From Escherichia phage KKP 3715: a DNA stretch of 64,000 nucleotides. This document shows, in pieces, positions 55,604 to 63,864 of this stretch. A program made the translations under genes and the position numbers. Position 1 is the stretch's first letter, and every line of letters begins with the position of its first letter. Where the stretch lies: the sequence record OR067834.1. One strand, 5' to 3'. The notes under the pieces are model-generated. The model was not told the DNA's origin. It saw only the letters and a program-made list of their open reading frames with translations, and searched no databases.

Positions 55604-55633
55604 TAAAAAAGAAAGCCACCCTCAAGGGTGGCT
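55604..55633 (-). terminator. Rho-independent terminator
   Basis: On the - strand: AGCCACCC-TTGA-GGGTGGCT followed by TTCTTTTTTATC. Confidence 0.55.
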
Positions 55634-55814
55634 AGTTGTTGATGTGGTAAATCCAGTAAGCTATCCAACCGGCTAATACAAAACATCCGGCAGAGTACGC
55701 TCCATAGTAGCAATAAGCAAACTTGGATTTGTGGGCGTTAACTATAGTGAGTATCACAATAGCAGATAAAACTATCAGTACGGTTTTAGTAATAACATCA
55801 TAGATGTCTGGCAT
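55632..55814 (-). CDS. small membrane protein (hypothetical)
   Basis: Start moved to the ATG at 55814 with GGAGGT RBS (track start lies inside the upstream terminator); two hydrophobic helices. Confidence 0.4.
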   Translation of the reverse strand: MPDIYDVITKTVLIVLSAIVILTIVNAHKSKFAYCYYGAYSAGCFVLAGWIAYWIYHINN

Positions 55815-55831
55815 GTTGACTACCTCCAAGC

Positions 55832-55868
55832 AAAAAATAAAAAGCCCCATACCCGAAGGTATGAGGCC
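55832..55868 (-). terminator. Rho-independent terminator after RNAP subunit gene
   Basis: On the - strand: GCCTCATACC-TTCG-GGTATGGGGC followed by TTTTTATTTTTTG. Confidence 0.55.
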
Positions 55869-55874
55869 AGTTTA

Positions 55875-57092
55875 TTAACTTAATGCATAATCCGTTTCAA
55901 GAATGTCCTGCCAGAGGCTGTCATCCAGCTTACCAGCAGAAAACTCTTGTCCCAGTACCTGAGACAGAATGAAGCCCAGCAAATCACTCTTAGCAATGTC
56001 AGACAGAATCTGATTGTACTGACGACGCAGGTCATTGCCATAGTTAGGGTGACAACGGAAGCAGTCATGTACGGTCATTACAGGGAATGGTTTCTTAGGC
56101 ATGGTATTGATCATAGCCATGATTACATCTGTATCAACCAATGCAATCGTTTCTGAGTCCAGATAGTCAAAGATACGGGTAGACAGGAATCCCGACTTCT
56201 CATAGCTAGCCCATAGTGTGTTAACCATTTCATGGTTAGCATCAGGAACAACTATGTATTCACTGGTTCCTTCACAGAGGGACTTAATATAGTTCACCTG
56301 GTTCATGTTGAAGTTACAACGACGCAGCATCTCACGTACCACCATCCCATCAATAGAGTGGGTGATGTTAGCAGAGAGCATACGAGTCTTCTCTTCAGTA
56401 CCCTGAACCATACGAGTGATGTCGAATGGTTTACCTAAGAAGTTAACGGTCTGTACTTCTGGAACCATGACCTTAATGACAGCATGGTAGTTGTCAGGCA
56501 ATACCCATACGTAACGGTTAGCATCCGGGTTACCACATTGCAGTAAGAACTTGTTCAGTGCCCAAGGTCCACTAGCAACAGTTTCCATTACATTCTCAAA
56601 AGTCTTGAGACGGATACCTTCACCGAATACTTCTTTAGGCTTAGCTTCTGAACCGTAGAACGCAGTCATAACTGCCTGCTTGGTGTCACTACGTTTAATA
56701 CGAGATGCTTCACCAAGGATGTCCAGCATCTTGTGATAGATAACTGTATAAGCATCACGACGTAATGGCTTACCATTCTCTCCCATGTAGTTAACTACGT
56801 TACACAGTTCAGCAGCAGAACGGTCACCAGTCAGGCAAGCCAGTAACTGTAAGCCAGATGATGTAGCATCCAGAGCTACGGCATAGCCAATAGGCTTACC
56901 AGCTTTCATGTCTTTCCATGCGTTTATACCTGCATAGAACAGTGCAGATTCTTCAGCTTCATCTACCAGATTGAGCAGGTTAGCTTCGTTCTCATCGAAC
57001 CAGCTAATACGTTCATCCCATGTCTTCTTGTCTAAGCCATAGTTGTTAGCGATATCTACTTTCAGGTATTCACGGGCAGTTAACAGTTGCAT
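55875..57092 (-). CDS. T7-like single-subunit RNA polymerase, C-terminal catalytic part (N4 RNAP II large subunit-like)
   Basis: 405 aa; motif A-like DATSSGLQLLA (T7 DGSCSGIQH), motif B-like RSDTKQAVMTAFYGS (T7 RSVTKRSVMTLAYGS), motif C-like VHDCF (T7 HDSF). Confidence 0.65.
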   Translation of the reverse strand: MQLLTAREYLKVDIANNYGLDKKTWDERISWFDENEANLLNLVDEAEESALFYAGINAWKDMKAGKPIGYAVALDATSSGLQLLACLTGDRSAAELCNVVNYMGENGKPLRRDAYTVIYHKMLDILGEASRIKRSDTKQAVMTAFYGSEAKPKEVFGEGIRLKTFENVMETVASGPWALNKFLLQCGNPDANRYVWVLPDNYHAVIKVMVPEVQTVNFLGKPFDITRMVQGTEEKTRMLSANITHSIDGMVVREMLRRCNFNMNQVNYIKSLCEGTSEYIVVPDANHEMVNTLWASYEKSGFLSTRIFDYLDSETIALVDTDVIMAMINTMPKKPFPVMTVHDCFRCHPNYGNDLRRQYNQILSDIAKSDLLGFILSQVLGQEFSAGKLDDSLWQDILETDYALS

Positions 57093-57148
57093 TTTATATT
57101 CCTTTTGCTTCTTGGCTCCCCACTATGGAGAGCCTGCTTATTGGATGA

Positions 57149-57391
57149 TTAACCAGCATTAAAAGATGACAATACTATTCCTGGCTCTACGCCTTCGGTG
57201 GCAATACCAAGGTACTCAACATGTACTTTATCTGGGGAAGAACACCAAGCTGAGTATGTACTCCATTCCCCATCTGGGCTAATAAGACGAGCCTCTTCAG
57301 CAGTTTTAGCTGCTACCACAACAGAATCGAATGTATCCCACCCCTTACGCTCATTCTGGCTAATAAGCCATAGCTTTAATATCTCACTCAT
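57149..57391 (-). CDS. hypothetical protein between the two RNAP genes
   Basis: 80 aa ORF overlapping the upstream gene by 8 nt. Confidence 0.35.
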   Translation of the reverse strand: MSEILKLWLISQNERKGWDTFDSVVVAAKTAEEARLISPDGEWSTYSAWCSSPDKVHVEYLGIATEGVEPGIVLSSFNAG

Positions 57392-58202
57392 CGTTTACTA
57401 ACTCCTTATCAGCGAACTCCAGTACAGCTTTGTTGTAGCTGGTTCCCTGATAGTTGATGTGATAGCCCTGAGCGTAAGTACGCCCACGTTTGTCATATTT
57501 GTGACCCAGTGAGAAGTTATTACCTTCCTGAGTCACTAACTCCATTACTTCCTTAGCAGTACGGCTGTACTTCTCAAAGGCTTTAACACGTTTCTCATAT
57601 TCCTGACGGGTTTCACCCTCTTTGGGTTTATCCATGTTAGGACGAGAGTCTTTTACATAGTTAGCAACGTCCCAGTTAATACAGAGACGTTGGTTGTTCA
57701 TACGGTTGATGTGGTCAAGGCAGACATCCATCTCATGATGGTTCTTCTTGAGGATAATGCTTCCTTTGGTCTGGTAGTATCCAGTATCCCTGTTAGTTCT
57801 GACAGGATTAGGAGCACTTACGATAGGTAATGGATACTGGAATGCTTCCAGTTCCATCTGAACATCTTCACTAATCTCATAGATAACACCGAATTTGTCG
57901 ATGGTAGGGTCATAGTTGAAGCAGTCATTCTCTGCCATCTTATACAGACAGTCGGCGATGTACTGAGCATCATCTGAATGGCTCATGAGAGAGCCAATCA
58001 TAGTCTGGATGTCAGCACGTTTATGTAGGGCAATCTGCACCATTGCATCAATGAGCAGCTTATAATCAATTTCTAAATAGGCAGCGAATGCCTTAAAGTC
58101 AATTTCTTTGGAGTCCTCGAATTCCTTCCTCATGCGAGGCAGTAATTGATTTTTATTAAATAGGACTTCAAGCTGCTTCTGATGTTCAATAGATGAGTAC
58201 AT
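57384..58202 (-). CDS. T7-like RNA polymerase, N-terminal part (N4 RNAP II small subunit-like)
   Basis: 272 aa; HKYDKRGRTYAQGYHINYQGTSYNKA resembles the T7 RNAP segment around DWRGRVYA; separate ORF from the catalytic part. Confidence 0.5.
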   Translation of the reverse strand: MYSSIEHQKQLEVLFNKNQLLPRMRKEFEDSKEIDFKAFAAYLEIDYKLLIDAMVQIALHKRADIQTMIGSLMSHSDDAQYIADCLYKMAENDCFNYDPTIDKFGVIYEISEDVQMELEAFQYPLPIVSAPNPVRTNRDTGYYQTKGSIILKKNHHEMDVCLDHINRMNNQRLCINWDVANYVKDSRPNMDKPKEGETRQEYEKRVKAFEKYSRTAKEVMELVTQEGNNFSLGHKYDKRGRTYAQGYHINYQGTSYNKAVLEFADKELVNDE

Positions 58203-62215: not shown

Positions 62216-62512
62216 TTAGAAAGTCAGTTTACGAGCATATTTATTCTCGTCTGCTGGGATGTCAGCAGCCTCTGCTTTCACACGACGAAGTTGAACTTGC
62301 AGGTTAATGATACCTTCTTCACCTGGTTCCAGGTTCTGAGCATATTCGATTAACTGTTCCAGCAAATCGTTCTGTGCACAACGCATAGCACGGAAGTCAG
62401 CATTGCTGCTGTTAGTAGGCAGTGGTTCCTGAGTATCCAGTGGAATACCAGTAGGCAGAGAGATGAATTTCTCATCCTCAGAGCCTTCATTAGCAATATA
62501 ACCAATGTTCAA
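62216..62512 (-). CDS. hypothetical acidic early protein (TTG start in track)
   Basis: 98 aa, strongly acidic; no ATG near the 5' end, only a TTG with weak RBS, so the start is uncertain. Confidence 0.3.
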
Positions 62513-62534
62513 CCAGAACTGAGCCTTAGGCTTA

Positions 62535-62600
62535 GCAGTTTTTAGTTTCAGTGGTAGCAGCAGCGTTAGATTGACCGAAAGTGAATTTTTGAATAGACAT
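62535..62600 (-). CDS. unannotated 22-codon ORF with strong RBS
   Basis: ATG at 62600 preceded by GGAGAG; [22 protein letters not shown]; first ORF downstream of the 62711-62725 hairpin. Confidence 0.25.
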
Positions 62601-62710
62601 TTTGTACTCTCCAGATAAATGATTGTTTGATTTATGGGTTTGTCCGTCGGTGACTAAACCCAAGAAAAGACTTAAGATTTCAATGATTAGTGGATGCATT
62701 TACATCCTTT

Positions 62711-63540: not shown

Positions 63541-63864
63541 TTAGTCTTTAGTCAGGATGTCAATTACTTTTGAATATTCTGCATTATAGATACGAGCGTT
63601 CTCTGAATCTTTGCAGAATTCTTCAATACTTTTCTTACGCATAGTCTCGTTCATAGCTGTTTCTTCAGCTAATTTGTTTACGAATGTATGCATTTCTAAT
63701 TTAGTACGAATGGCTTGTTTCTCTGCCATAGTAGATACATATGAGTTAAGCATACCTACTGCTTTAGTAGCTGTGCCAAATGTATCTGCAACAGTAGTAG
63801 CAGCAGAGTTAACAGTACCCAGTAAAGTTCCTGCGGTCATACGTACAGTAGCGGTAGTAGTCAT
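63541..63864 (-). CDS. hypothetical early protein
   Basis: 107 aa; first ORF downstream of the hairpin at 63907-63921. Confidence 0.4.
   Translation of the reverse strand: MTTTATVRMTAGTLLGTVNSAATTVADTFGTATKAVGMLNSYVSTMAEKQAIRTKLEMHTFVNKLAEETAMNETMRKKSIEEFCKDSENARIYNAEYSKVIDILTKD

Follow-up and report, generated by a model that had tools for sequence, protein, structure and literature searches.

A two-subunit, N4-type RNA polymerase locus with a variable small gene between its subunits in Escherichia phage KKP 3715

Gene content of the locus

The sequence analysed here is a stretch of 64,000 nucleotides from Escherichia phage KKP 3715 (OR067834.1), hereafter called the window. It exhibits the genes of two RNA polymerase (RNAP) subunits, RNAP1 and RNAP2, with a small ORF between them (Table 1). 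The three ORFs described in the initial annotation are all present on the minus strand at the positions given there, with products of 272, 80 and 405 aa. The 80-aa ORF and RNAP1 overlap by 8 nt, at the ATG of the former and the stop codon of the latter (AACGATGAGTGA), and the sequence AAGGAG is found 10 nt upstream of this ATG. The 80-aa ORF is co-transcribed with RNAP1 and is probably also translationally coupled to it. The hairpin in the spacer upstream of RNAP2 (57114-57134) has a 9-bp stem and a 3-nt loop (fold -19.4 kcal/mol, z = -2.07); N4 and phi G17 have a shorter hairpin at the corresponding position. We rejected this hairpin as an intrinsic terminator, since it lacks a T-run and is not called by the terminator scan.

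Table 1. Positions of the RNA polymerase genes, the intervening elements and the cofactor gene homologues in the window
Feature	Position	Strand	Remarks
Intrinsic-terminator-like hairpin and T-run	55843..55868	-	11-pair stem, tail TTTTATTTTT; directly downstream of the RNAP2 stop
RNAP2, large catalytic subunit of phage RNAPII, 405 aa	55875..57092	-	N4 gp16 orthologue
Spacer upstream of RNAP2	57093..57148	-	Hairpin and RNAP2 ribosome-binding site (AAAGGAA)
80-aa accessory ORF (phrog_5444 family)	57149..57391	-	Variable cassette in the RNAP1/RNAP2 junction
RNAP1, small subunit of phage RNAPII, 272 aa	57384..58202	-	N4 gp15 orthologue
N4 gp2 homologue	62216..62600	-	Two HSPs in different frames; a 1-nt insertion interrupts the gene
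N4 gp1 homologue, second middle-transcription cofactor, intact	63541..63864	-	107-aa ORF; 66% identity over residues 1-104

Sequence comparison places the source of the window among the Gamaleyavirus (G7C-like, N4-like Schitoviridae) coliphages. Its DNA is about 95% identical to PhAPEC5 and Bas96, and identities to G7C, PhAPEC5, E20 and Bas96 range from 88 to 96%, virion RNAP included; the giant virion RNAP is located in a stretch of the window that is 95% identical to Bas96 and PhAPEC5. The N4 genes gp1, gp2, gp6, gp7, gp9, gp11, gp12, gp14-17, gp24 and gp25 are collinear with the window.

In N4, gp2 is the single-stranded DNA-binding protein that brings RNAPII to middle promoters (PMC4496689). 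Homologues of both gp1 and gp2 are located upstream of the RNAP genes in the window, that of gp2 being frameshifted. Alignment with PhAPEC7 (PhAPEC7_3, annotated as N4 gp2-like protein), Bas96 and phi G17 reveals a run of five A residues at 62539-62543 where the relatives exhibit four, and the interrupted region is read as two ORFs (62532-62699 and 62216-62512). This frameshift is probably a homopolymer error; if it were real, RNAPII recruitment would need another way.

The two products are homologous to the N4 RNAPII subunits

The heterodimeric RNAPII of bacteriophage N4 has been known since the early 2000s. An alignment to its subunits, proposed together with the initial annotation, gives end-to-end matches for both products of KKP 3715: residues 3-269 of the 272-aa product align with residues 2-268 of N4 RNAP1 (6DT7_A; E-value = 4e-119), and residues 1-405 of the 405-aa product with residues 1-404 of N4 RNAP2 (6DT7_B; E-value = 5e-193). 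The protein sequence identity is 66% to gp15 for RNAP1 and 69% to gp16 for RNAP2. RNAP1 also matches phrog_2166 "N4-like RNA polymerase" (E-value = 4e-117) and RNAP2 matches phrog_2051 (E-value = 2e-176). Judged from these alignments, the homology of both products to the N4 RNAPII subunits is far above chance. RNAP1 homologues are found in 467 phage records across the N4-like phages.

The motif strings read earlier from the two products, a DxRGR-type segment in the 272-aa product and DATSSGLQLLA, RSDTKQAVMTAFYGS and HDCF in the 405-aa product, were all recovered. RNAP1 comprises the N-terminal domain, the thumb and the DX2GR motif (DKRGR), its DKRGRTY segment being aligned with DFRGRTY of the human mitochondrial RNAP. 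RNAP2 comprises the palm and the fingers; its motif A is DATSSG, its motif B RSDTKQAVMTAFYGS and its motif C HDCF, all conserved with N4 gp16 in the alignment. This assignment of DX2GR to the small subunit and of the other three motifs to the large one follows PMC4496689, a review that covers, for N4, the gp15/gp16 heterodimer, how the motifs are distributed over it and what gp1 and gp2 do. The Pfam RNA_pol domain (PF00940) is detected at residues 8-148 of the 405-aa product (E-value = 1.5e-14) and spans motifs A and B. Against the profile of single-chain RNAPs (phrog_414), residues 117-270 of RNAP1 correspond to profile positions 227-424 and residues 8-150 of RNAP2 to positions 429-596. The profile is thus covered contiguously and without overlap by two co-oriented genes, small subunit first. 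A phmmer search of RNAP2 against the PDB does not reach T7 RNAP even at an E-value of 10, so that the assignment to the T7 family rests on PF00940, the PHROG profiles, the N4 structures and the literature.

The locus resembles that of N4 in gene order, split point and motif distribution, and the subunits are of nearly the same lengths (272 and 405 aa in KKP 3715, 269 and 404 aa in N4). The neighborhood is also alike: gp14 precedes the two genes, the gene of the gp17 decoration protein follows them, and gp1/gp2 are found at a greater distance upstream. The two phages differ at the junction, where a 243-nt ORF is inserted in KKP 3715 in place of the short N4 spacer. They also differ in the last two codons of RNAP1 (NDE-stop in KKP 3715, NED-stop in N4), a change that created the overlapping start of the 80-aa ORF.

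The junction is variable among relatives

The distance between RNAP1 and RNAP2 is 47 nt in N4, 55 nt in phi G17, 207 nt in PhAPEC5, which harbors a 53-aa ORF there, and 291 nt in the window. Larger junctions are found in E20 (438 nt), IME11 (467 nt), G7C (584 nt, with an HNH endonuclease) and JZBo1 (597 nt). The layout of KKP 3715, with a 79/80-aa ORF alone, is shared by at least six deposited phages (ZQ2, VTCCBPA_322, PBM-2, PBM-3, UE-S5b and AN24P2), whose DNA is 90-92% identical over the whole junction. Of the Gamaleyavirus genomes listed, about three quarters have either no insert or a different one (the 53-aa ORF or an HNH endonuclease). The junction variants without HNH have the spacer block in common as their right-hand boundary; it is also located after the cassettes in PhAPEC5, IME11 and E20. 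The junction is a recombination and insertion hot spot lying exactly at the split point, with alternative small cassettes.

A "G7C-type" organisation, in which RNAP1 and RNAP2 are spaced by zero to eight genes, has been described by Amgarten et al. 2017 (PMC5418858), and the window carries one unrelated gene, the 80-aa ORF, at this place. KKP 3715 shares the presence of unrelated gene(s) between RNAP1 and RNAP2 with the G7C-type phages G7C, IME11, E20 and ZQ2. In contrast, the position of the 80-aa ORF is taken by a 193-aa HNH endonuclease in G7C and by the 53-aa ORF in PhAPEC5. In IME11 and E20, the 80-aa ORF is preceded by one more small ORF. The two-subunit organisation with a spacer gene is therefore already known.

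The 80-aa ORF belongs to a large family

The 80-aa ORF matches phrog_5444 (unknown function; E-value = 5e-24) and exhibits no similarity to RNAPs, in agreement with the earlier statement that it is unrelated to either subunit. Its dN/dS is 0.15-0.21 against IME11 and E20, and we observe it to be a real gene under purifying selection. A C-terminal SFNAG is invariant in the family, and the AF2-predicted structure of the protein has a pLDDT of 92. At E-value ≤ 1e-3 the family comprises 6,674 representatives at 50% identity, and is thus a very large group of uncharacterised phage proteins of about 80 aa.

Scans of the ORF with Pfam, NCBIfam and PADLOC gave no match. Searches against PDB sequences (phmmer and a profile search) returned a spurious repeat in a flagellin-hook protein as the sole match, and Foldseek against BFVD returned uncharacterised viral proteins only, so that none of the structural neighbours of the protein is a characterised one. 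A literature search on the family gave no relevant result. The dS of the 80-aa ORF (0.72-0.75) is higher than that of the flanking RNAP genes (0.18-0.47), which points to a separate, mosaic history.

Relation of the 80-aa protein to the polymerase

We consider it highly probable that the locus encodes the two subunits of an N4-type RNAPII, and that the 80-aa ORF is a swappable small cassette outside the enzyme. The 80-aa protein is not a component of RNAPII, and the cassette appears to be dispensable.

Three other roles of the 80-aa ORF were considered. The ORF might represent mobile-DNA traffic at the hot spot, either as a GIY-YIG-like module (minimal or degenerate) or as a selfish passenger that drives or goes along with its own transfer from one phage genome to another; in neither form would it serve phage transcription. 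We regard this as improbable. Structural scores for such a module do not rise above noise. When 36 family members were scanned against Pfam at E-value ≤ 10, scattered noise alone was obtained, with neither a GIY-YIG nor an HNH match. The full-length conservation, the invariant SFNAG and the purifying selection indicate that the ORF is not a decaying remnant, and no DNA-binding domain is attached to it.

Conversely, the protein could be more than a mere passenger, acting as a non-essential modulator of RNAPII or of the early-to-middle takeover. It could for instance tune subunit stoichiometry or assembly, or counter a host factor that targets the phage polymerase. A gene of the 80-aa family adjoins RNAP2 on its upstream side in three diverged Enquatrovirinae-like lineages: Gamaleyavirus, the Klebsiella phages JZBo1 and VLCpiP4b, and the metagenomic contig L015. 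In L015 this gene and the RNAP genes have equal dN (0.30 and 0.28-0.29, respectively), which is what a long co-residence would give. The spread over lineages, the dN in L015 and the overlap with the RNAP1 stop codon leave room for a non-essential functional link to RNAPII, although we assign quite a low probability to the modulator role.

The initial annotation had gone further in suggesting that the 80-codon ORF could be a specificity factor. In such a role the protein would be a dedicated accessory factor, coupled to RNAP1 and binding the heterodimer, that modulates its promoter choice or activity. The overlap of its ATG with the RNAP1 stop codon and the AAGGAG upstream are in line with this suggestion. 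So are its position directly upstream of RNAP2 in every N4-like junction examined that bears it, across the three lineages, and its divergence in L015. Cofactors have moreover been proposed to be recruited by the RNAP1 N-terminal domain, in a study treating the RNAPII cofactors (PMC7145618). However, the junctions of N4 and phi G17 contain no gene, and N4 gp15 and gp16 alone constitute an active, crystallised enzyme. The ORF is also absent from about three quarters of the listed close Gamaleyavirus genomes, despite RNAP subunits that are 94-99% identical at the protein level. It does not co-occur regularly with RNAPII, being missing in N4, phi G17, PhAPEC5 and G7C.

The distribution of the family argues against a dedicated factor as well, its 6,674 representatives standing against 467 phage records with RNAP1. 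A member with 52% identity is found in Vibrio phage 1.164.O, in a 48-kb record labelled as a partial genome, and neither RNAP1 nor RNAP2 was found anywhere in this deposited partial record. In two metagenomic contigs of 70-80 kb, no RNAP genes were detected within 4 kb on either side of the family copy. As to known cofactors, N4 gp2 (with gp1) and LUZ7 Drc (gp14) are likewise small early proteins, and their genes share the early region with those of RNAPII. The 80-aa ORF nevertheless lacks sequence or fold similarity to the N4 gp2 and LUZ7 Drc families, nor is it similar in sequence to any PDB entry, and the gp1 and gp2 homologues are separate genes elsewhere in the window. A specificity factor is thus very unlikely. 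Of the initial reading, the T7-like RNAP split as in N4 RNAPII is retained and the role given to the intervening ORF is abandoned.

The split is native to the family

RNAP1 and RNAP2 are in frame with each other (58202-57092 = 1110 nt). The window has at least one homopolymer indel elsewhere (in gp2), and homing endonuclease genes occupy the same junction in relatives. These observations would fit an artificial split due to a sequencing frameshift, or one gene into which a removable element (an ORF-bearing group I intron or an intein) is inserted, with a single-chain T7-like RNAP as the true product. This alternative can be practically dismissed: 11 in-frame stop codons separate the two genes, the N4 gp15 and gp16 with the same termini were purified and crystallised as two chains, the split recurs throughout the N4-like genomes examined, N4 and phi G17 having empty junctions (47-55 nt), and the 80-aa ORF exhibits no intein or endonuclease signature.

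A check for a frameshift or an intron joining the two frames, as advised with the initial annotation, accordingly found neither. Read-through into a single continuous ORF is ruled out by the stop codons. An intron or intein is ruled out because, on either side of the split, the protein ends align with the corresponding ends of N4 gp15 and gp16, and because the signature of such an element is absent. The two-gene split is thus a native, family-wide architecture, and not the product of a frameshift, an intron or an intein.

In Aeromonas phage Aeh1, nrdA is split by mobE, one of the free-standing homing endonucleases that create or maintain "genes in pieces". For RNAP, a homing-endonuclease origin or maintenance of the split has been proposed (PMC5418858). 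The N4-like locus resembles the Aeh1 type in that an essential enzyme is made as two polypeptides, and in the presence of endonuclease genes and other small ORFs exactly at the split point. It differs in that the insert of KKP 3715 appears not to be an endonuclease, and in that the RNAP split is old and has become fixed in the N4-like phages surveyed, rather than being a recent insertion.

Proposed role in the transcription programme and implications

By homology to N4, RNAP1 and RNAP2 would be early genes transcribed by the injected virion RNAP. As in N4 and LUZ7, the two chains may assemble non-covalently into one T7-like enzyme, and this RNAPII would then transcribe the middle genes. The single-stranded DNA-binding gp2, together with gp1, would recruit it to AT-rich, locally melted promoters. 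Heterodimer formation, expression timing and gp2 dependence in KKP 3715 are thus predicted by analogy with the work on N4 and LUZ7.

Structures of the N4 RNAPII are available (PDB 6DT7, 6DT8, 6DTA), and the discovery value of the locus is small; the window can be annotated with confidence from the comparison with N4. The split-point junction is documented here to be a modular hot spot that occurs with at least eight different contents, and the large, uncharacterised 80-aa family is flagged for screens of early phage genes.

A native split RNA polymerase

The initial annotation proposed a T7-like RNA polymerase divided between two genes, and both the three ORFs concerned (Table) and the division itself are borne out. 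The 272-aa product (RNAP1) is matched over residues 3-269 by N4 RNAP1 (gp15, PDB 6DT7 chain A; E-value = 4e-119), and the 405-aa product (RNAP2) over residues 1-405 by N4 RNAP2 (gp16, 6DT7 chain B; E-value = 5e-193). Their PHROG families are "N4-like RNA polymerase" and "RNA polymerase", respectively, and residues 8-148 of the large subunit match the Pfam RNA_pol domain (PF00940). The polymerase motifs originally noted were all identified: DKRGRTY in RNAP1 aligns with DFRGRTY of the mitochondrial RNA polymerase, and RNAP2 has DATSSG, RSDTKQAVMTAFYGS and HDCF in common with N4 gp16. On the single-chain profile phrog_414, RNAP1 covers positions 227-424 and RNAP2 positions 429-596; since these segments adjoin, nothing is missing at the split.

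RNAP1 and RNAP2 share a reading frame, with starts 1110 nt apart, but 11 stop codons interrupt that frame within the intervening 291 nt. A frameshift, an intron or an intein as the cause of the split was rejected. RNAP1 homologues occur in 467 phage records across N4-like phages, and the purified N4 enzyme is a gp15-gp16 heterodimer (PMC4496689). From these records and the published heterodimer, together with the N4 alignments and the motifs, the split is therefore a native, long-known architecture of the N4 type.

Coordinates of the features discussed
Feature	Position	Strand	Remarks
RNAP1 ORF, 272 aa	57384-58202	-	ORF call
80-aa ORF	57149-57391	-	ORF call
RNAP2 ORF, 405 aa	55875-57092	-	ORF call
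Junction hairpin	57114-57134	-	GGCUCUCCA-UAG-UGGGGAGCC; 9-bp stem, 3-nt loop; -19.4 kcal/mol, z -2.1
Strong terminator-like hairpin with T-run	55843-55868	-	starts 7 nt after RNAP2 stop
Second terminator-like hairpin, bidirectional	55614-55633		~230 nt beyond the first
72-aa ORF	55632-55850		ORF call
Homologue of N4 gp2	62216-62600	-	ssDNA-binding recruiter of RNAPII; A-run 62539-62543

The region exhibits 88-96% DNA identity to Escherichia phages PhAPEC5, PhAPEC7, G7C, E20, IME11 and others, all of which are Gamaleyavirus (Schitoviridae, Enquatrovirinae). A 24-kb stretch with the giant virion RNA polymerase is ~95% identical to Bas96 and PhAPEC5. Homologues of N4 gp1, gp2, gp6, gp7, gp9, gp11, gp12, gp14, gp15, gp16, gp17, gp24 and gp25 are collinear on the minus strand (63864→51315). 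Because of this identity and collinearity, the window can be classified as a G7C-like, N4-like coliphage in reverse orientation.

By orthology, RNAP1 and RNAP2 would be early products assembling into the middle-gene RNA polymerase (RNAPII), which gp2 and gp1 would recruit. In N4, recruitment and specificity come from gp2, with gp1, and middle transcription requires gp2 (PMC4496689); phage LUZ7 follows the same logic with another ssDNA-binding cofactor, Drc (PMC7145618). The gp2 homologue of the window has one extra A (A5, versus A4 in PhAPEC7 and Bas96 and AAAG in phi G17), so that the frame opened by the ATG at 62600 ends after 22 codons, with the remainder of the protein in another frame. 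Given the requirement for gp2 in N4, the extra A most likely arose in sequencing or assembly of the homopolymer. Hypothetical +1 slippage on AAAAA would again yield the wild-type protein.

A variable junction between the two subunit genes

The start codon of the 80-aa ORF and the RNAP1 stop codon overlap (…AAC GAT GAG TGA / ATG AGT GAG…), with AAGGAG 10 nt upstream of the ATG. The ORF is predicted to be co-transcribed with RNAP1 and is probably translationally coupled to it. In contrast, only 47 nt, with no ORF, separate gp15 and gp16 in N4, and the junction of phi G17 is 55 nt long.

Contents of the RNAP1/RNAP2 junction
Phage	Junction genes	Intergene (nt)
PhAPEC5	53-aa ORF	207
Window	80-aa ORF alone	291
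E20	38-aa ORF + 80-aa ORF	438
IME11	53-aa ORF + 79-aa ORF	467
G7C	193-aa HNH endonuclease	584
Klebsiella phage JZBo1	98-aa ORF + 83-aa homologue	597

A 1091-nt query spanning the junction was used to survey relatives, with ~40 distinct Gamaleyavirus-like genomes among the matches listed. Judged from span lengths and record annotations, with part of the genomes inspected individually, about 13 of these ~40 contain the 53-aa ORF only and about 13 an HNH gene; four combine the 80-aa ORF with another small ORF, two have an empty junction, and about six (ZQ2, VTCCBPA_322, PBM-2, PBM-3, UE-S5b, AN24P2; 100% coverage, 90-92% identity) have the arrangement of the window. Both the enzyme and the gene order are already known: the G7C-type organisation has been published, the number of spacer genes in N4-like phages ranging from zero to eight, and insertion of a homing endonuclease was proposed as the cause of the split (PMC5418858).

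The junction cassettes are modular. That of IME11 is composed of the PhAPEC5 cassette and, after it, the window cassette, and approximately the last 23 nt of RNAP1, GATAAGGAGNTAGTAAAYGATG, are repeated before the second (79-aa) ORF (IME11 locus L006, 1540-1800; compare window 57384-57420). This repeat, within which lie the ribosome-binding site and the start of the following gene, resembles a scar left when PhAPEC5-type and window-type junctions recombined over short homologies and their cassettes were shuffled. In alleles with an HNH gene, for example that of G7C (locus L002, 2385-3090, versus window 57033-57443), the final 60 nt of RNAP1 and the initial 60 nt of RNAP2 differ from HNH-less alleles at many positions, most of the substitutions being silent. 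Such a pattern would be expected near a homing-endonuclease target site, through self-immunity or co-conversion.

All non-HNH variants have a common right boundary, formed by the junction hairpin and, just downstream, the RNAP2 ribosome-binding site; N4 and phi G17 have a shorter hairpin at the same place. The hairpin was rejected as an intrinsic terminator because it lacks a T-run. Possible roles are RNA processing or stability, or that of a recombination boundary. Beyond RNAP2, the start of the 72-aa ORF falls inside the first terminator-like hairpin, so the annotation of the small gp16.1-like gene deserves a check.

The 80-aa ORF and its family

The 80-aa ORF matches phrog_5444 (function unknown; E-value = 5e-24), with no match in Pfam, NCBIfam, PADLOC or PDB sequences. 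In the phage collection, the family is found in 13 Gamaleyavirus records, two Klebsiella N4-like phages and about 40 unrelated phages, including Erwinia, Salmonella and Kosakonia jumbo phages, 106-110-kb Rhizobium and Pectobacterium phages, Acinetobacter myophages, a Vibrio myophage and a cyanophage. A 36-member profile retrieved 6,674 cluster representatives at 50% identity (3,833 at E-value<=1e-10). With few exceptions these are stand-alone proteins of 75-110 aa, the domain reaching the very C-terminus, where an invariant SFNAG ends the sequence. No Pfam model exists for this widespread, uncharacterised phage protein family; jumbo phages of the 201phi2-1 type encode multiple paralogues, and structural relatives of it occur in giant viruses.

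The initial suggestion that this ORF encodes a specificity factor finds no support: N4 RNAPII works and crystallises without the protein, whose gene is absent from the N4 junction, and the window has genes for the known cofactors, gp1 and gp2, at other positions. The ORF is also missing from phages whose RNAP subunits share 94-99% identity with those encoded in the window. Conversely, the 48 kb deposited for Vibrio phage 1.164.O, a record labelled as a partial genome, encode a 52%-identical homologue but neither RNAP1 nor RNAP2, and in two metagenomic contigs of 70-80 kb no RNAP gene lies within 4 kb of the family member. On the other side, a family member lies directly upstream of RNAP2 in every ORF-bearing junction examined in N4-like phages, and this in three diverged lineages: Gamaleyavirus, JZBo1/VLCpiP4b (40% identity) and a metagenomic contig (66% identity), where the ORF and the polymerase genes have equal dN (0.30 and 0.28-0.29, respectively). 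These observations point to long residence upstream of RNAP2 in part of the subfamily, which would leave room for a dispensable functional link with RNAPII; we consider such a link highly improbable.

The 80-aa ORF is under purifying selection (dN/dS 0.15-0.21 versus IME11 and E20). At 0.72-0.75, its dS lies above the values for the polymerase genes on either side (0.18-0.47), which indicates a recombinational history of its own. The ORF would be best described as an optional early gene, occupying a putative hot spot of recombination and insertion at the split point of the polymerase.
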